Below, in pieces: positions 56,367-63,901 of a stretch of DNA of 64,000 nucleotides. This stretch comes from Candidatus Micrarchaeota archaeon. Lineage in GTDB: Archaea > Micrarchaeota > Micrarchaeia > Anstonellales > Bilamarchaeaceae. Made by a program: the position numbers and the translations under genes. The stretch lies in assembly GCA_038046805.1 (NCBI GenBank), contig JBBSVO010000003.1, forward strand, positions 147,120-211,119, written 5' to 3'. Under the pieces are notes generated by a model. It was given only the letters and a program-made list of their open reading frames with translations. It did not search any database and was not told the origin of the DNA. How positions within the stretch are numbered: position 1 is the stretch's first letter; every line of letters begins with the position of its first letter.

Positions 56367-57299
56367 CTAGACATTTTTCAAGAATTGCGCGTAGACAAAC
56401 TCAACAAAAGGCTTTTCGGCCTTAGTTTCAACTGATTTTATCAAAACATCGAAGTAGCTTGCAGTTTCCTTTGAAATATTAAGTAATGGATAACCGCTGT
56501 CGAAAAGTGCCTTGTTCAGAAGCAGGCGGGAGATCCTCTTGTTGCCATCCTCAAATGGATGAATCATGTAAAAACGCAAGTGGAGCAGGGCAGCGAGCTC
56601 CAGTGCACTGAGTTTCCCAAGGTTTTCGTTGTACCATAAGATAAGTTTCCCCAGTTCTTTGGCAATAACCTTATGCCCCACGGGCCTAAAACCTATTTCT
56701 TCTACCTTATCGTAGCTTTTCAGGTATATGTATGCCTGTTTTTCACGCAACACGCCTGGTTTCCTTTCCTCAAAATCAGACATGATGATCCTGTGCAATT
56801 CTAGAATAAAATTGAGTGTCAGCCCTTTAGCACTTTCCTTGACGTACCTAAGCCCTTTTATCATGTCCAAGGCTACACGAAGGTTCTCATCCCTAATGTC
56901 CTTTACATTCTTTTGATTAAACTTATAGGCAAGATTCGCATCCTCTCTGGTTATTGGAATTCCTTCCGTTGATAATGTAGTATAAATAAAATTAACCGTA
57001 TCGATCTCTTCTTTTTCATCTTGTGCAGATTTGCCGAGCTTGGCCAATTTTTTTATGTAACGTCGCCTTCTTTTTTCGGCTTCTATGAGCTGCTCTTTGG
57101 TGAGATATACCGGGGTTACATTATCCAAAAGAAAAAGGTATATCTTATCCAATAGTTCACATTTCTTTTTTTCAACCTCGGCCTTGTTTGGGATTCTACG
57201 ACCTAAGAAAACCGAGAAAACCTTTGGACGTTCGAGCCGTATTGACTCTTCCAAATAGTAATACTCGTGTCCATTGACCAGCTTCGTGCGTATTTTCAT
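56367..57299 (-). CDS. Fic/Doc-domain protein with N-terminal YYYL domain
   Basis: HPFEDGNKRISR (Doc-like K in motif); N-terminus paralogous to 51384..52343. Confidence 0.88.
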   Translation of the reverse strand: MKIRTKLVNGHEYYYLEESIRLERPKVFSVFLGRRIPNKAEVEKKKCELLDKIYLFLLDNVTPVYLTKEQLIEAEKRRRRYIKKLAKLGKSAQDEKEEIDTVNFIYTTLSTEGIPITREDANLAYKFNQKNVKDIRDENLRVALDMIKGLRYVKESAKGLTLNFILELHRIIMSDFEERKPGVLREKQAYIYLKSYDKVEEIGFRPVGHKVIAKELGKLILWYNENLGKLSALELAALLHLRFYMIHPFEDGNKRISRLLLNKALFDSGYPLLNISKETASYFDVLIKSVETKAEKPFVEFVYAQFLKNV

Positions 57300-57325
57300 G
57301 GAATTAATTGGAAGCCAAGGTTATT

Positions 57326-57416
57326 AAACTTATCATACATTTTATATGTTAAATGTATGCCTAAAAATTACGTCTGAAAAACTTATCATACATTTTATAA
57401 CATAAAAGTAAGATAA
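57326..57416. promoter_or_regulatory. 21-bp direct repeats, each with a downstream inverted arm, upstream of Fic gene
   Basis: AAACTTATCATACATTTTATA at 57326 and 57379. Confidence 0.65.
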
Positions 57417-57417
57417 C

Positions 57418-59025
57418 TCATTGGCGACCAGCACAATTGAGATTGTAAATATCCATCCCAAACTCTTTGTTCTTCTCCAGTCTCCTTAGCAATTCATCCA
57501 TTACAATCTTTTTTACTTCCATGTATTTCTCCCGCCCAACCTCAACATTGGCAATAGCATACCGTTTGCTCTTCGTATTGAAACAAAACATGCAATTATC
57601 CAGATTCTCGGAATTATGGCAGAACATTGAGTTCGCGCAATTATTGCACCCGTTCATTTCTAGGCACGCAGTCATATTGGTGCAACCATGGCACCTTATG
57701 CAAAATTTTGAATGAACCGCACGCTGGCAACCAAATACGTTTTCCGAGGCAACTGCCATATTGCAATATGCGCAGTTTTTCGAATGCGCGCAATCCTCAA
57801 CCTGATAGCTGTTCGCAACGCAATAGGTGACATGAGACTCGATATTATTGACCGAATTTCCCTCGGTAACATTAGTCGGGAAAAAGGCGACGCCGGCAAG
57901 TTTTGCGGCAAGCTGGCCAAGCCCTAGTGTTTCGCCTTCCTTAAGCTCCATCTTCATTCTGGAAGCATGCTCGGATTCATGGCAGGAGATAACCCTGTCT
58001 TTTGGCACTGAACCGAAAAACGTAAATGAAGGAGAGAACCAGACCGTATTTCCAAACGAAGTTGGATGTGATTTAACTGAGTTTATTCCATGAGTAAGAA
58101 ACTTCTGGTTTTCATTTAGTCCGCCGATTTCTTTTCCGAATATTACCCTGCACGTGTCATGGAACGCAGTGTCGAGTTTGTTGAAGTCTTGTTCCGGCAG
58201 TTTGAACGCAAATTTCGGCATAACTGGAGCTTTTGGCATTCCGGGAATTACGAACGGCGGATAGAACCTTTTGTGTTTCTCGATATATTCACGAATCTCC
58301 ACAATGAGCTTGTCCTTTAATTGCAAATATCGTTCTCTCGGCAATTCGAGATTCCCGATGCAGTATCGCTTTCCCTTTTGGTTAAATGAAAACATAAGGT
58401 GCGCGCAATCAAAATTGTAATAACTGCAGTAAACATCAGATACCGACGCGGAAAAATACGATTCAAAGGCGCGGATAAGCGTTCCTTCAATCACGTGTAT
58501 TGCATATTTACTGCTCGGGGAATATGCGCATCCGAATGTGTATTCCGCCCCGTCCCGCATGTAAGAAGAATACGCCACATATTTTGAGCCGTGAATGTTG
58601 TGCGAATTCTTTACGCAGAAACTGTCAACGCAATTGTCGCTGATTTCGATTTGTTCCGAACGTCCGAATTTCTTGTTTCCAGTATAAATTACTCTTTCCT
58701 GTATCGCCTCAACAATGGAATCAACGTCCTTTATTTCATTAATTCCGAGAGGATTGAACGGCGCACCGTTCAAATTTTGAAAAAACAGTGGTTTTTTCAA
58801 CGGCTCGAATTTTTTGTTCCAGTCAATCTCGTCCTGTGAAATAAATTTTGCGGTTTCAAGATAGCTCGAACTGGAGACCATAACTGGTTTTCCTGATACT
58901 GAGGATGTTTTTTGCCCAAGCGGAACCTGGTAACTGAGCAGCCAATCCTTTACTTCATCCATCTCCACGTTGCACTCACCCAAAAGAAGCTTGTACGTGA
59001 ATTTGAATGCCTGATTGATGTCCAT
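57418..59025 (-). CDS. Cys-rich internally duplicated repeat protein carrying a 17-aa palindrome-derived insertion
   Basis: Paralog of 27336..28940 (EIKDVDSI vs EVKDIDSI; CFNTKSKRYAIANVEVG vs CFNTRNKRYAIGNVEVG). Confidence 0.75.
   Translation of the reverse strand: MDINQAFKFTYKLLLGECNVEMDEVKDWLLSYQVPLGQKTSSVSGKPVMVSSSSYLETAKFISQDEIDWNKKFEPLKKPLFFQNLNGAPFNPLGINEIKDVDSIVEAIQERVIYTGNKKFGRSEQIEISDNCVDSFCVKNSHNIHGSKYVAYSSYMRDGAEYTFGCAYSPSSKYAIHVIEGTLIRAFESYFSASVSDVYCSYYNFDCAHLMFSFNQKGKRYCIGNLELPRERYLQLKDKLIVEIREYIEKHKRFYPPFVIPGMPKAPVMPKFAFKLPEQDFNKLDTAFHDTCRVIFGKEIGGLNENQKFLTHGINSVKSHPTSFGNTVWFSPSFTFFGSVPKDRVISCHESEHASRMKMELKEGETLGLGQLAAKLAGVAFFPTNVTEGNSVNNIESHVTYCVANSYQVEDCAHSKNCAYCNMAVASENVFGCQRAVHSKFCIRCHGCTNMTACLEMNGCNNCANSMFCHNSENLDNCMFCFNTKSKRYAIANVEVGREKYMEVKKIVMDELLRRLEKNKEFGMDIYNLNCAGRQ
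58747..58800. repeat. In-frame double-hairpin insertion related to family A
   Basis: TTGAACGG-CGCA-CCGTTCAA and TTGAAAAAAC-AGTG-GTTTTTTCAA; absent in the paralog. Confidence 0.7.
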
Positions 59026-59063
59026 GAATTGATTATGTATTACATTATATTTTAATTCTAACA

Positions 59064-59103
59064 ATCAAAAATTGCACAAAATACGAATATTTTATAAAGA
59101 AAT
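59064..59103 (+). promoter_or_regulatory. Conserved promoter/operator upstream of tandem Lrp gene (copy 2)
   Basis: ATCAAAAATTGCACAAAATACGAATATTTTATAAAGAAAT matches 2526-2565. Confidence 0.55.
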
Positions 59104-59120
59104 CTCATTATAATTAATAT

Positions 59121-60107
59121 ATGACTGGACAAGTTGCTGGACAGATTGAACTAGATACGCTGGACAGAAGAATTATGTACGAACTGGACCTGAACGCACG
59201 GATAAGCGCGTCCCAGCTAGCAAAAAAACTCAGAAAGAGCAAGGAAACGATAAATTTCAGGATAACCCGGCTGCTTAAGGAGAAGTACGTCAAAGGATTC
59301 TACGCAGTGCTCAATATCGCCAAGCTGGGCTGGTTTTATTACAAGCTTTACCTCAAATTCAATCCAATTTCACCTGAAAAGGAAAATGAAATCATAGAAT
59401 ACATAAAGACCCAGGATTACATCGCATATCTTGCGAGCATGGAGGGAAAATACGACTGCATCCTGCTCTTTATGGCAAAGGATGCTATAGGCATGCTTGA
59501 TTTTCTTTATCCATTCATGAAGAAGTACGGTGATCTCATACGGGAAAAGGACTTGGTATCGTTTATCGGTGCAAGGCGCCTAAACGAGCGGTTTCTTTAC
59601 GCAGGGGAAAAAAGACAAAGCCTGGATTATTCCTTTGAACTCGGAAACTACGAGACAGATGAACTTGACGAGCGCATTCTCCGGGTTCTGGCAAGCGAGG
59701 CGCGAATCCCTTTGACAGGGCTTGCAAAAAGGGCATATTCCAACCCAAAGGCAGTGAAATACCACATGAAAAAGCTGGAGAAAGAGGGGATAATACTTGG
59801 ATATGCAAGCTCCCCAAATTTCGACAGGCTTGGATTGCAGTTCATCCAGATAAACATCTCATTGGTGGATCCGACCGCAAAGCCCGCGATAATAGAATAT
59901 TTCGATTCCACGAACAAATGCCTGTTCGTGCTTGAGTATCTTGGCAAATATGATCTGGGCGTAGAGCTTCATCTCAAGAACCATGATGAACTTAACTCAA
60001 TTTTGGATAGCTTCAGGGAGAAATTTTCAGATAAGTATTACGATTACGATGTTGCCACAATACCAAAAGAGCACGTAGTTATATGGGGTCCGTTTTCAAA
60101 AGTCTGA
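59121..60107 (+). CDS. Tandem Lrp/AsnC-family transcriptional regulator
   Basis: LDTLDRRIMYELDLNARIS... and second unit DELDERILRVLASEARIP; paralog of 2583..3596. Confidence 0.88.
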   Translation: MTGQVAGQIELDTLDRRIMYELDLNARISASQLAKKLRKSKETINFRITRLLKEKYVKGFYAVLNIAKLGWFYYKLYLKFNPISPEKENEIIEYIKTQDYIAYLASMEGKYDCILLFMAKDAIGMLDFLYPFMKKYGDLIREKDLVSFIGARRLNERFLYAGEKRQSLDYSFELGNYETDELDERILRVLASEARIPLTGLAKRAYSNPKAVKYHMKKLEKEGIILGYASSPNFDRLGLQFIQINISLVDPTAKPAIIEYFDSTNKCLFVLEYLGKYDLGVELHLKNHDELNSILDSFREKFSDKYYDYDVATIPKEHVVIWGPFSKV

Positions 60108-60118
60108 TTCAATGCGTC

Positions 60119-62824
60119 TTATCTCCTCTCCCCATATTCCCCTTTGAACTGCTCATATTCGCCAAGCATTGCTTTGGTTACCGAGGGCCTTCTTGTCTTT
60201 ATTATCGCAAGCAGAGATTCAGCTGTTATCTTTGCGTCTCTTCCCCCTATCTTTGCCCTCACTGCCTGCATTTTCGCTTCCTGTGCAATTCCGGCAATAT
60301 CTGCACCGGTGAAACCTTCTGACGCATCTGCCAGCGCTGCTAAGTTTAGCCCTTCTGCAAACTTTCCAAGATGAATTTTGAACATCTCCGCACGCCCGGC
60401 ATTGTCTGGAGGAGAGATATAAAATATCTTGTCAAAACGTCCCGGACGCAGGATGGCAGAATCTAATATGCTCGGCCGGTTTGTTGCACCCAACACCACG
60501 ACACCTTTTAGTTCCTTCAAACCGTCCATTTCCGTAAGTAACTGCCCTACTACCTCGCTCGTTCCTATTCCGCGCTGCGGCGCAAACGTCTCAATTTCAT
60601 CAACAAAAATTATTGCTGGCGCATTCTCTCTTGCACGGTTGAATGCTTCCTTAATCACTGTAACGGCCTGAGTATAACCGAGTTTCATTATCTCTGCGCC
60701 GCTCAACACCTGGAAAGATGCTTTCAATTCACCGCTCGCAGCCTTTGCCATTAGTGTTTTTCCACAACCCGGAGGGCCGAACAGCAAAATTCCCTTGCTT
60801 GGCTTTACTTTGAATTCCTTCATTAAATCTTCTCTGAGGAGCGGAAGTTCCAGGGTTTCAAGAAGCGCTTGTTTCACGTCGCCAAGTCCGGCAACATCCT
60901 CCCATTTGACAATCTCGCCTTGCCCTTCTTCGTCTTTTCCGTCTTCCTTTCCGCCGCCGCTTCTTCTTTCAAAATCCATTTTGAACCGTTCGAAATCCTC
61001 AAGCTGTGCGATCCCAGTGCTTGGTTTTGTCCGCTTTAGCACTGAAAGAAAATGTTCCATAGAAACAAGAACTATTTTTCCTGTTTTGCCTGCTTCTTTT
61101 GCCGCAAGTCCGGTTGCTTCATCAACAACGTTCTTTAGGTCAGCACCAGAGAAACGTTCGGTCTTCACTGCCAGCTTTTCAAAGTCCAGGTCATCATCTA
61201 CAGGAACTTTTCGTGTATGGACCTTTAGAATTGCTTCGCGCCCTTCTTTTTCCGGAAGATGCATGTAGATTATTTTATCAAATCTTCCAGGACGCAAAAT
61301 TGCAGAATCAAGCTGTTGTGGAACATTTGTTGCACCCATCACCAGAACCATTTTCCCCTTTTTCTTTCCTGCGCCATCCATTTCCTGAAGGAATATACTC
61401 AATACGCGTGGCGTTACATCATCTGCTCCATAAGAAGTTCTTTTCTTCGCAAGCGCGTCTATTTCATCAAAGAACATTATGCAAGGTGCATTCTTTCTGG
61501 CAGATGTGAAGATTTCAGCCACATTTCTCTCGGATTCACCCATCCATTGGCTCAGGATATCCGAACTCTTCACATAATAAAACGGATATTTCAATTCCTT
61601 TGCAAGCGCGCGCATGAGCATTGTTTTACCAGTACCTGGAGGGCCAAACATCAGAATGCCGCTCGGTGGTTTTAGTCCGTACGTGATTGCAATTTCCTTT
61701 TTCTCAAGCGGAACAACAATAGAATCGCGAAGCTCCTGTTTAACATCCTCATAATTTCCTATGTCATCCAGAGACTTCTCACTTGAGCCAAGTGCCATGT
61801 CCTCGAATCCGAATTTCCCGAATGATTTCATTTTTTCCTTGTGCGTTTCTTCTACTTCGTGGCTTATCTGCACCCCGGATTGTTCGAGCGCACCAACGAT
61901 TGCTATTGTCGCGATAACCGCACCGGCCAATTCAAAACTGAACATTCCCGGTATTATTGTTCCGAAAATGAAATATGCGAGCGGAACAAAAAATAAAATC
62001 AGGCTTGATATCAACTGAGTTCTCTTTCCTTTCATTGTGCCAGACATATAGCTTATCCCATACAGTGCAATTAACCAAATTATTGCCTGCAAGAGCCCGC
62101 TATCCGCAAATAAAACTGAGAGAAGATTTCCGAGAGAGTGTCCCATTGCCTGCGGAAGATTTGCAACACTTTCAGAAGAGAATAACCCTCCAAGTGAAGT
62201 TGCCACAGCCGTTGGGATGCCAAGCAATTCTATTGGTTCTTTTGTCAGCATCATCGGGGAATATGAAGGATATTTCAGAAGTGAAACCGGAAGGAACGCA
62301 CTGTTTTGTACCATCCATACAGAAGAAAGGAACAGAATCGCAAGAACAGATGGAATGGAAATCATCGCACTTTTTCTTGAGCCGAAATGAAATGCACCAA
62401 GTACCATACCAAGTATGCTTATCCATCCAAAAAGAGGAAGCTGACCAAATGCAAAAGGCGCGAATATCAATACTTCAAGTGTTGAAATAACATTCCATCT
62501 TTCAAACATCTCAAAAAGAACTATCGCGAGCACCAGAAGGAATAACAGACCGAAAACCGAGGACTGAAATGCAACTGCGGGAATTACAAAAACGATTGAA
62601 AGAAGCGTTCCGAGCGGCGGGGATTTATATGCTGCAATCCCGCAAACCGCTGCCAATGCAACAACAACGTAAATCGGATAAAACGGGAATGTTCCCAAAA
62701 CGAAAAGCGCACCTAGAAAAACAAGCAATGCGTTCCAGATTCCCTCGTTTTCCTGCATAAGCCTCAGGGTTGCCACTACCTTTTGGCCTTCCAATGATTT
62801 TCCCTTTAACTTAGAGGCTGGCAT
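60119..62824 (-). CDS. Double-AAA ATPase (Cdc48/VCP-like D1+D2) fused to a polytopic membrane N-terminal domain
   Basis: ~320-aa hydrophobic N-terminus; GPPGTGKT/FFDEID/RPGRFD and GPPGCGKT/FVDEIE/RPGRFD. Confidence 0.9.
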   Translation of the reverse strand: MPASKLKGKSLEGQKVVATLRLMQENEGIWNALLVFLGALFVLGTFPFYPIYVVVALAAVCGIAAYKSPPLGTLLSIVFVIPAVAFQSSVFGLLFLLVLAIVLFEMFERWNVISTLEVLIFAPFAFGQLPLFGWISILGMVLGAFHFGSRKSAMISIPSVLAILFLSSVWMVQNSAFLPVSLLKYPSYSPMMLTKEPIELLGIPTAVATSLGGLFSSESVANLPQAMGHSLGNLLSVLFADSGLLQAIIWLIALYGISYMSGTMKGKRTQLISSLILFFVPLAYFIFGTIIPGMFSFELAGAVIATIAIVGALEQSGVQISHEVEETHKEKMKSFGKFGFEDMALGSSEKSLDDIGNYEDVKQELRDSIVVPLEKKEIAITYGLKPPSGILMFGPPGTGKTMLMRALAKELKYPFYYVKSSDILSQWMGESERNVAEIFTSARKNAPCIMFFDEIDALAKKRTSYGADDVTPRVLSIFLQEMDGAGKKKGKMVLVMGATNVPQQLDSAILRPGRFDKIIYMHLPEKEGREAILKVHTRKVPVDDDLDFEKLAVKTERFSGADLKNVVDEATGLAAKEAGKTGKIVLVSMEHFLSVLKRTKPSTGIAQLEDFERFKMDFERRSGGGKEDGKDEEGQGEIVKWEDVAGLGDVKQALLETLELPLLREDLMKEFKVKPSKGILLFGPPGCGKTLMAKAASGELKASFQVLSGAEIMKLGYTQAVTVIKEAFNRARENAPAIIFVDEIETFAPQRGIGTSEVVGQLLTEMDGLKELKGVVVLGATNRPSILDSAILRPGRFDKIFYISPPDNAGRAEMFKIHLGKFAEGLNLAALADASEGFTGADIAGIAQEAKMQAVRAKIGGRDAKITAESLLAIIKTRRPSVTKAMLGEYEQFKGEYGERR

Positions 62825-62861
62825 GATAACACAAATGCGGGAATGTTTATATTTGTATTAG

Positions 62862-63368
62862 CTAACTGGAATTTATTGCTGCTGCAACCGCGTTCTCAGT
62901 TACTCCATAGGTTATCAAAGCAAGTATTGCAAATAAGGGATAGATTACCCATGTATAGCCAGCATAACTGCTTTTTGATATTAGTGGAGAAACATTAAGA
63001 TATGTCGATATGAGAAGAACGAGAACATTTAGGACATGCCGCTGAAGATGTATTCCATTCCAAACATCATAGTTTCCGTAAACCACATTGTTAGTTTCAT
63101 CAAGATACGCACCGGGAGTATAACCCGCAGTGTCAATTATTGTTTTTCCAAGAAATATTTGCTCGATTGCCGGGCTGACTGCAAACAACCATGCAACAAG
63201 CATCATCCCAAATGCAATCCAGTTTATACCTTTGAATTCTATTTCGTAGAATGCTTTTTTTCCCTCAATTTCATTCATTAATCCTGAGGAAATGAAATAG
63301 AAGATAGCATATATCAAAAGGCTTACCAAAAGAAAAAACAATTTTAGAGAGATTAATCCTGCATCCAT
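62862..63368 (-). CDS. Multi-TM membrane protein (paralog of 63375..63842)
   Basis: Shared LVAWLFAVSPA and RH..N..VL.I..Y.N.SP motifs. Confidence 0.75.
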   Translation of the reverse strand: MDAGLISLKLFFLLVSLLIYAIFYFISSGLMNEIEGKKAFYEIEFKGINWIAFGMMLVAWLFAVSPAIEQIFLGKTIIDTAGYTPGAYLDETNNVVYGNYDVWNGIHLQRHVLNVLVLLISTYLNVSPLISKSSYAGYTWVIYPLFAILALITYGVTENAVAAAINSS

Positions 63369-63374
63369 ATTTTA

Positions 63375-63842
63375 TCACCCCGAATCTGCAAACACGGGTT
63401 TTCCCGTAACAATGACCGATACAAGCATTTCTGTAAATGCGTAAGCAGTTAGAATAAGTATTACTCCTGTTATAACTGTAAATAAATCCAGTGCACTTGC
63501 TTCACTTTTTTTCGCAAGACCAACCAGTTCAAGAACAGGGCTATTGTTCGCATATGCTCCGATAGATAATACTGCTAAATTTATCGCATGCCTTTTCATA
63601 TCCCAGATATCAAATTGGACCTGTTTTCCAAGCAAATGGTCCACGGCCGGACTTACTGCAAAAAGCCAGGCAACCAGAAACAACGAGATTACTTTCATAT
63701 CCCCGACAAAACTATCCCAATCCGTCGCTGGTTTTTTTGCACTTTCTTCAACGCTAATCTGGGTTGTCATCCAGACAGTTATATAAAAAATAATTGTCAT
63801 TCCAAGAAGCAACAACTTCCATAGAAGTTTCGCGAGATCCAT
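63375..63842 (-). CDS. Multi-TM membrane protein (paralog of 62862..63368)
   Basis: Shared LVAWLFAVSPA and RH..N..VL.I..Y.N.SP motifs; GAGG RBS. Confidence 0.75.
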   Translation of the reverse strand: MDLAKLLWKLLLLGMTIIFYITVWMTTQISVEESAKKPATDWDSFVGDMKVISLFLVAWLFAVSPAVDHLLGKQVQFDIWDMKRHAINLAVLSIGAYANNSPVLELVGLAKKSEASALDLFTVITGVILILTAYAFTEMLVSVIVTGKPVFADSG

Positions 63843-63901
63843 GCCTCAAATCCCCGCGCAACCCTTTTAATAATTAACTATGTAGGTATACCGGTGAATA
63901 C

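Follow-up and report, generated by a model that had tools for sequence, protein, structure and literature searches.

A polytopic membrane domain fused to two AAA modules

In a 64,000-nucleotide (nt) stretch of a Candidatus Micrarchaeota genome (GenBank assembly GCA_038046805.1, contig JBBSVO010000003.1, positions 147,120 to 211,119; hereafter, the window), we identified a gene encoding a membrane-fused tandem AAA ATPase of 901 amino acids (aa). The gene occupies positions 60119 to 62824 of the window on the minus strand, stop codon included, and its product is predicted to begin with approximately 10 membrane helices (residues 1 to 320), which a short linker connects to two complete AAA modules of the classic type. 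Judged by its distribution, this fusion is an old, near-core, and usually single-copy gene of Micrarchaeota, because it was found in most genomes of the phylum, with the AAA modules in frame at 20 of 20 diverse loci. The architecture is real and conserved, is apparently undescribed, and represents a variant of the membrane-anchored AAA unfoldase theme. Our preferred interpretation, in which we place about as much confidence as doubt, is that of a membrane-integral and presumably hexameric unfoldase that would pull membrane or envelope proteins through its first ring.

Pfam assigned two AAA domains (PF00004) and two AAA_lid_3 domains to the protein. The first AAA module (residues 351 to 625; positions 60950 to 61774, minus strand) carries a Walker A motif (GPPGTGKT, residues 394 to 401), a Walker B motif (FFDEID), a sensor-1 Asn, the arginine-finger motif RPGRFD, and an aromatic pore loop (QWMGESE). 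In the second module (residues 646 to 901; positions 60122 to 60889, minus strand), the ATPase motifs are likewise intact (i.e., GPPGCGKT at residues 683 to 690, FVDEIE, a sensor-1 Asn, and RPGRFD), but a degenerate sequence (KLGY) stands at pore loop 1. Walker A, the Walker B DE pair, and the sensor-1 Asn are kept in both modules across 42 homologs. RPGR[FLIV]D is conserved in module 1 of the same 42 sequences; the arginine finger of module 2 was read from this protein alone. Pore loop 1 is predominantly W[YM]GESE in module 1 of 23 family members and a variable K[LRKN]G.. in module 2, and on this alignment the aromatic pore loop is retained only by the first AAA module. The two modules are joined to the membrane domain by a cytoplasmic linker (residues 321 to 350; positions 61775 to 61864, minus strand), which contains a helix in the AlphaFold2 model (residues 323 to 343) and a conserved FGKFG motif (alignment of 42 full-length homologs).

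No protease domain was detected in the protein by Pfam, including the M41 family (PF01434). The C terminus (EYGERR) does not present the HbYX motif used for docking to the proteasome. A YGER[KR] tail was found in 30 of 44 family members, and YGER or YGKR, in some cases followed by a short extension, is present in most of the other tails; only the tail MYR, in a single member, conforms to HbYX, and another member has HYR at its end.

Structure of the membrane domain

Hydropathy analysis of the membrane domain (residues 1 to 320; positions 61865 to 62824, minus strand) revealed 8 to 9 hydrophobic stretches within residues 27 to 314. The AlphaFold2 model of residues 1 to 345, built on a 49-sequence alignment, is an all-helical bundle (pLDDT, 93.5; pTM, 0.89). 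Positive charges are grouped at the N terminus, at K67, at R109, at R150/K151, and at K265/K267/R268. From the positive-inside rule and the helix list of the model, we infer ten spans with both termini in the cytoplasm and an outside loop at approximately residues 173 to 230. Five residues are invariant in the 49-sequence alignment (Q87, W110, F124, G148, and W170), and D241, which lies in a predicted span, is nearly so; a predicted cytoplasmic loop carries the conserved motif FGS[KR]KS.

Even at permissive thresholds (Pfam E value of ≤10, residues 1 to 330), neither Pfam nor NCBIfam contained a family that matched the domain. A Foldseek search of the PDB with the model returned nothing at an E value of ≤0.001 (best E value, 0.35, with a TM score below 0.2), and the best score in an ESM Atlas feature search (0.77) was below the meaningful level. 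Comparisons of its halves and quarters with hhalign detected no internal repeat (probabilities of 0.3% and 2.2%, respectively).

The 12 best matches of the domain in VIA-align were all S-components of energy-coupling factor (ECF) transporters or CbiM, with Z scores of 10.0 to 7.1, which are below the caution line of approximately 13 under which matches are common for helical bundles. These superpositions have root mean square deviations of 3.6 to 5.1 Å over 138 to 156 aligned residues, mostly within model residues ~100 to 329; the best of them (4hzu_S; Z score, 10.0) aligns 145 residues at 4.0 Å and 13% identity (model residues 104 to 326). Small subunits of complex I, BtuM, Lnt (Z score, 6.4), and MreD (Z score, 6.2) appeared further down. 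The likeness to ECF S-components is taken here as a lead rather than a fold assignment. No Derlin, rhomboid, Hrd1, YidC, or Sec-type entry occurred among the Foldseek matches or the 50 VIA-align matches shown, a result that does not exclude these or other families missing from them.

This lead allows for a transport-coupled machine, in which an ECF-S-like bundle would bind either a small molecule or a lipid whose movement would be energized or gated by the AAA rings, or in which polypeptides would be moved outward to a host. Abstracts from the literature describe Micrarchaeota as dependent on their hosts for metabolites, in keeping with such a role, as is the uniform identity of the 12 best matches. 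However, at these Z scores the resemblance may reflect no more than a common arrangement of helices, and Foldseek returned nothing at an E value of ≤0.001. Furthermore, in AAA motors of the classic clade that have aromatic pore loops, polypeptides pass through the ring from its N-terminal to its C-terminal face, a direction that would be inward here. We consider a transport-coupled machine highly unlikely.

A structure search of the ESM Atlas with the domain returned its own family (labeled "Microcaldota," a name that was put forward to replace Micrarchaeota, according to PMC8784108) together with looser matches, in which the bundle is carried by a 532-aa Ser/Thr kinase cluster (TM score, 0.63) and by a 787-aa Bathyarchaeota protein (TM score, 0.66). 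A similar bundle on unrelated cytoplasmic domains suggests a modular anchor or sensor, and the AAA part of our ATPase is ordinary; the protein could thus be a tethered segregase whose motor works on cytoplasmic complexes, soluble or peripheral, that are located at the surface of the membrane. TM scores of approximately 0.6 are weak evidence for helical bundles, however, and ten helices that are kept phylum-wide with five invariant residues exceed the needs of an anchor, so that we assign this alternative a small probability.

Distribution across Micrarchaeota

All of the named homologs are annotated as "AAA family ATPase" of Candidatus Micrarchaeota or Micrarchaeia. The membrane domain alone retrieved 30 proteins in a word-indexed search (the query protein included) and only 40 representative clusters among 1.84 billion proteins. 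The four short representatives that we inspected are truncated fragments and not stand-alone membrane domains. Among 401 sampled genomes of the phylum, the single membrane-domain sequence matched 278, and a 49-sequence profile matched 329, mostly once per genome. The profile matches cover 161 of the 188 high-quality genomes and 125 of the 155 genera; no match was found in five families (f15, 0 of 7 genomes; f16, 0 of 21; f19, 0 of 8; f21, 0 of 4; f22, 0 of 4). The open frames around the matches are ~890 to 960 aa long, and some reach ~1390 to 1450 aa and contain intein domains. At all 20 of the diverse loci mentioned above, the membrane domain is followed in frame by both AAA modules.

Several family members have unusual features. 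In many homologs of ~1390 to 1450 aa (P0005, P0011, P0016, P0017, and P0030 and those at L057 and L062), the AAA part is interrupted by inteins (PF14890 and PF14528), and the break in L057 lies ~100 residues into module 1; inteins are typical of essential, conserved ATPases. The members at L065 and L066 carry C-terminal extensions ending in MYR and HYR, and MYG or MYR endings also occur on the Cdc48 proteins of the phylum. P0076 (926 aa) is a divergent protein with the same membrane domain and with motifs that appear degenerate by eye (FFDDID as Walker B in module 1; GPKGCGKS and LLDGLDE in module 2), and it may be a partly inactivated variant.

An additional AAA ATPase beside Cdc48

The ATPase scored 510.1 bits against the CDC48 model TIGR01243, whose curated cutoff is 802.65 bits. 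The source genome (1.2 Mb in 16 contigs; 86% complete) also encodes a canonical Cdc48 (721 aa; 1076.7 bits on the same model) that ends in MYG. Because its score is below the cutoff and the genome has a canonical Cdc48, the ATPase is, on sequence criteria, an additional AAA protein, neither a member of the Cdc48 family nor the Cdc48 of the organism. A tblastn search with both AAA modules found only three AAA loci in the source genome, none of them PAN-like. The third locus encodes a 570-aa protein with N-terminal tetratricopeptide repeats (TPR) and a single AAA module (TPR-AAA; G000:C2:64835-66544 [-], L090:13836-15545). The same trio was found in five of five other Micrarchaeota genomes, where TPR-AAA was recognized as AAA matches in frames of 477 to 557 aa.

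The best sequence matches of the ATPase in the PDB are VAT (5vc7; E value, 7.6e-116) and p97, and both of its modules align best to D2, not D1, of Cdc48, VAT, and p97. We built a FastTree phylogeny of the modules from a small reference set (23 family members, 6 Micrarchaeota Cdc48 proteins, and a single TPR-AAA sequence as the root). Each module type is monophyletic in this tree; the clade of Cdc48 D1 and D2 (support, 0.97) is sister to module 2 (0.95), and module 1 lies outside. No D1-D1 or D2-D2 pairing of the ATPase modules with those of Cdc48 was recovered. The tree, which is indicative only, thus does not support orthology of the modules to D1 and D2 of Cdc48.

An earlier, sequence-only reading of this DNA had called the protein "Cdc48-like" and had described ~320 aa with about ten hydrophobic helices in place of the Cdc48 N-domain, two AAA modules with intact Walker A, Walker B, and RPGRFD motifs, no protease domain, and a YGERR terminus unlike HbYX. 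Hydropathy, the AlphaFold2 model, the translation, and Pfam bear out all of these features. The label "Cdc48-like" holds for the tandem classic AAA modules, but it does not extend to family membership or to the pairing of modules, and the organism has its own Cdc48.

The FtsH-type M41 protease (PF01434) was not found in the 86%-complete source genome, so an FtsH-like niche would be open there. Proteins of the 20S proteasome and Lon_C proteins are present. The ATPase itself scores 419 bits on the FtsH model TIGR01241, compared with a cutoff of 600 bits.

Two small membrane proteins upstream of the ATPase

Two open reading frames (ORFs) precede the ATPase on the same strand, encoding P0003 (155 aa; positions 63375 to 63842) and P0002 (168 aa; positions 62862 to 63368). 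Each has approximately four hydrophobic helices by hydropathy, and they have LVAWLFAVSPA and RHxxN..Y.N.SP in common. On the basis of their BLASTP similarity (E value, 4e-11; 33% identity over 78 aa), they are true paralogs. P0002 belongs to no Pfam or NCBIfam family, its AlphaFold2 model (11 sequences) is poor (pLDDT, 58.9; pTM, 0.43), and an ESM Atlas feature search with it gave a best score of 0.81, below the meaningful level. The profile of P0002 and P0003 has no similarity to that of the membrane domain of the ATPase (probability, 0.2%).

The two proteins have a narrow distribution. In tblastn searches of 30 loci (membrane domain ± 1.5 kb), P0002 and P0003 matched only their own locus and that of the sister genome G294; they were absent from 28 of 28 loci outside the genus (± 1.5-kb flanks only) and from 20 of 20 wide loci. 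G294 has one copy upstream of the ATPase that is 85% identical to P0002, and a P0003-type copy is missing there. Among 5.8 billion proteins, a four-sequence profile of this family retrieved 9, of which several belong to the source genome. Five of the 401 phylum genomes matched this profile, strongly only in the source genome (three copies) and in G294 (two copies); the other three matches are marginal (E values of 7.5e-5 to 7e-4) and lie inside open frames of 429 to 449 aa. An aminotransferase gene stands directly upstream of the ATPase in five related loci, and at the source locus a 324-aa gene, P0003, and P0002 stand between the aminotransferase gene and the ATPase. Because the aminotransferase gene adjoins the ATPase in related loci, P0002 and P0003 look inserted, and the simplest reading is that they are a genus-specific insertion upstream of the ATPase and not conserved subunits.

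The third copy in the source genome (G000:C3:135163-135507; L031:2158-2511) lies ~75 kb from the ATPase and ~12 kb before the window, without an AAA neighbor and ~280 nt from an IS200 Y1 transposase gene (PF01797; E value, 3.5e-29). Its annotated start is probably too far downstream, because its relatives P0039 to P0041 have a longer N terminus.

These data bear on the possibility that P0003, P0002, and the ATPase form one membrane complex that resembles Msp1 or the machinery of endoplasmic reticulum-associated degradation (ERAD). In its favor, all three genes point the same way and are separated by 6 and 37 nt, P0002 and P0003 are membrane proteins, and G294 retains P0002 upstream of its ATPase. 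On the other hand, the small proteins are strong matches in 2 of the 401 genomes versus 329 for the ATPase, G294 lacks the P0003-type copy, the third paralog sits beside a transposase gene and not beside an AAA gene, and there is no profile similarity to the membrane domain. Such a three-protein complex is very improbable. The sequence-only reading had named P0002 and P0003 as "two paralogous membrane partners" of an extraction, translocation, or remodeling system; their co-orientation, paralogy, and common motifs stand, whereas the partnership is not supported, as the conservation of the ATPase does not extend to them. For the ATPase itself, the most natural reading is still that of an unfoldase or extractase.

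Linkage to S-layer genes and other genomic context

An S-layer protein gene (PF05124, E value of 1e-14; TIGR01564) lies directly 3' of the ATPase and in the same orientation in 14 of 43 wide loci; these loci come from 11 of the 14 sampled families other than f1 (the family of the source genome), f12, and f13. The gaps between the two genes are 217 to 699 nt in 12 of these 14 loci. At eight loci, the S-layer gene is followed by a gene for a secreted, sequon-rich protein (320 to 467 aa) without a family. Clusters of ATPase, S-layer, and secreted-protein genes are found at L042 to L061 (e.g., L042:1278-4055 and L047:2-1402). The linkage was seen at none of the 18 loci of f1 and at none of the 5 loci of f12 and f13, and the S-layer gene of the source genome is on another contig (C6). 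Sec-type signal peptides were recognized in the S-layer proteins, which lack a C-terminal anchor helix. The synteny suggests that in much of the phylum the ATPase is connected with the envelope, though this does not extend to the present locus.

The ATPase could accordingly be an envelope-specific factor, involved in S-layer biogenesis by clearing or recycling S-layer precursors or a membrane anchor, instead of a general quality control factor. Besides the two kinds of linked genes, a report on a cultured Micrarchaeon, which states that the anchoring of its S-layer is unknown (PMC8975820), is in keeping with such a factor. Against it stand the absence of the linkage in f1, f12, and f13, the location of the S-layer gene on a different contig in the source genome, and the gaps of more than 200 nt, which suggest separate promoters. 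In addition, a cytoplasmic motor would have no obvious handle on the S-layer proteins, because they have Sec-type signals and no C-terminal anchor helix. We regard a role restricted to the envelope as rather unlikely and retain the broader unfoldase interpretation.

P0034, a soluble 86-aa protein without a Pfam or NCBIfam family, was considered as a conserved partner of the ATPase and rejected. Its gene immediately precedes the ATPase in 12 of 30 f1 loci (e.g., L021:631-891 [+]), and a partial match lies at the edge of one more locus. It is absent from 20 of 20 diverse loci, and in the source genome it follows a DRG-type GTPase gene (MMR_HSR1, Xtn, and TGS domains) on another contig (G000:C6:102055-102291; L033:3056-3298). 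P0034 may be an undescribed companion of this GTPase.

A proposed mechanism

In the interpretation that we prefer, the ATPase would assemble into a hexamer in which the N-terminal domains sit at the entry side of ring 1, and the ten-helix domain would keep this ring at a distance of ~35 residues beneath the membrane. Because the membrane domain occupies the place of the substrate-recruiting N-domain of Cdc48, substrates would arrive from the membrane side and would be membrane or envelope proteins. With its complete ATPase site and its canonical aromatic pore loop, the first ring would be the threading motor. The second ring, whose motifs are those of a competent ATPase but whose pore loop is degenerate, would most likely contribute power or stability to the hexamer. 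The motor would grip its substrates and draw them into the cytoplasm, in the service of quality control, turnover, or remodeling, and the overall action would be like that of a protease-less FtsH or of Msp1.

Several points weigh against this interpretation. The mechanism (i.e., hexamer formation, the direction of threading, and the class of substrate) rests on analogy with AAA motors of the classic clade. With no protease domain and a YGER[KR] tail that is not HbYX, hand-over of substrates to the 20S proteasome is unsupported. The resemblance of the membrane domain to ECF S-components, at Z scores (up to 10.0) within the background of helical bundles, hints at a role in ligand binding or transport, and the S-layer synteny suggests a narrower, envelope-specific job. 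The tight packing of P0002 and P0003 with the ATPase may also allow for a lineage-specific interaction.

A more far-reaching version is that the membrane ring, which would contain sixty helices in a hexamer, forms a protein-conducting or laterally gated channel over the pore of module 1. The ATPase would then combine channel and motor in one polypeptide and act as a self-contained retrotranslocon, a possibility that we consider unlikely. If true, it would be a prokaryotic counterpart of Hrd1/Derlin plus Cdc48, and in the ultrasmall, host-dependent Micrarchaeota it would turn over components of the envelope or the S-layer or, possibly, import proteins at the site of contact with a host.

Layout and occurrence of the locus

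The three ORFs on the minus strand of positions 60119 to 63842 are closely set in the order P0003-P0002-ATPase. A divergent 324-aa gene without any Pfam family starts ~60 nt upstream of P0003, and downstream of the ATPase lies a convergent gene for a double helix-turn-helix (HTH) regulator of the AsnC/MarR type (328 aa; positions 59121 to 60107, plus strand). As the neighboring genes are divergent upstream and convergent downstream, the transcription-unit candidate at this locus is therefore P0003-P0002-ATPase. Two AT-rich boxes were noted by eye: TTAATTATTAAAA (positions 63865 to 63877, minus strand), ~29 nt upstream of the ATG of P0003, is possibly its archaeal TATA box, and AAATATAAAC (positions 62844 to 62853, minus strand), ~24 nt upstream of the ATG of the ATPase, is possibly a separate promoter of that gene. 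A scan for sigma-70 promoters and terminators, a model that does not apply to archaea, returned counts equal to the shuffle expectation. Near the ATPase, positions 56367 to 59064 of the minus strand encode a 548-aa protein without a family and a Fic/DOC-domain protein (310 aa).

DNA of the locus is present in groundwater and aquifer metagenome assemblies under six study codes, and matching contigs occur in three DNA runs that belong to three additional studies. One metatranscriptome library (X14) contained mismatch-free contigs on three pieces of the ATPase gene, one piece of P0003, and two pieces of the HTH regulator gene. None of these contigs spans two genes, and carry-over of DNA is possible; they are a weak hint that the ATPase, P0003, and regulator genes are transcribed.

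Significance and comparison with known systems

FtsH, Msp1, Bcs1, and Cdc48 with the ERAD channels are central to the quality control of membrane proteins. To our knowledge, all of the characterized membrane-anchored AAA motors have one or two anchor helices or work with separate channel proteins. The sequence-only reading had not recognized the present arrangement as a described archaeal complex, and we likewise found no description of a polytopic-membrane tandem AAA protein of archaea in the full-text literature. "AAA" and "Cdc48" do not occur in the main texts of two papers on cultured Micrarchaeota (PMC8975820 and PMC8784108), and neither S-layer locus tags nor "AAA family" occurs in the readable supplements of PMC8975820. 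The retention of the fusion in approximately four-fifths of the sampled Micrarchaeota genomes, which are ~1 Mb in size, argues for an important function, because these organisms shed most non-essential genes. The ATPase may serve as a compact system for studying how a motor and a membrane module cooperate in extracting proteins from the bilayer, and its linkage to S-layer genes in many lineages provides a concrete hypothesis on the maintenance of archaeal envelopes.

Like our ATPase, MBA of Sulfolobus is an archaeal AAA protein that is predicted to be membrane bound. Serek-Heuberger et al. are said to have described it in 2009 as a protein with a single AAA module and a single N-terminal helix that is confined to the Sulfolobales; judged by this description, the ATPase differs in its two modules, its polytopic domain, and its restriction to Micrarchaeota. 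In a listing of archaeal AAA proteins that cites this work, MBA forms a separate cluster (PMC3493965). ECF S-components (i.e., RibU, ThiT, FolT, and PanT) are six-helix proteins on which approximately the last six helices of the membrane domain can be superposed, with Z scores within the helical-bundle background; the domain differs from them in its four extra helices, and there is neither sequence similarity nor a Pfam match.

Msp1/ATAD1, an extractase, and Bcs1, a translocase, are membrane-anchored classic AAA motors that act on membrane proteins and have no fused protease. Compared by description, they have one anchor helix and one AAA module, whereas the ATPase has ~10 helices and two modules. 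FtsH, which occurs in bacteria and organelles, combines two membrane helices and a single AAA module with an M41 zinc protease at its C terminus. It resembles the ATPase in that an AAA ring is held under the membrane by N-terminal helices and in the presumed extraction of membrane proteins, and the ATPase departs from it in its ~10 helices, its two AAA modules, and the absence of a protease. With Cdc48, VAT, and p97, the tandem AAA segregases of archaea and eukaryotes, the ATPase shares tandem classic-clade AAA modules, each with a lid and arginine fingers. It differs from them in carrying ten predicted membrane helices in place of the double-psi-barrel N-domain, and in having two D2-like modules, an aromatic pore loop in the first of these, and a YGERR tail.

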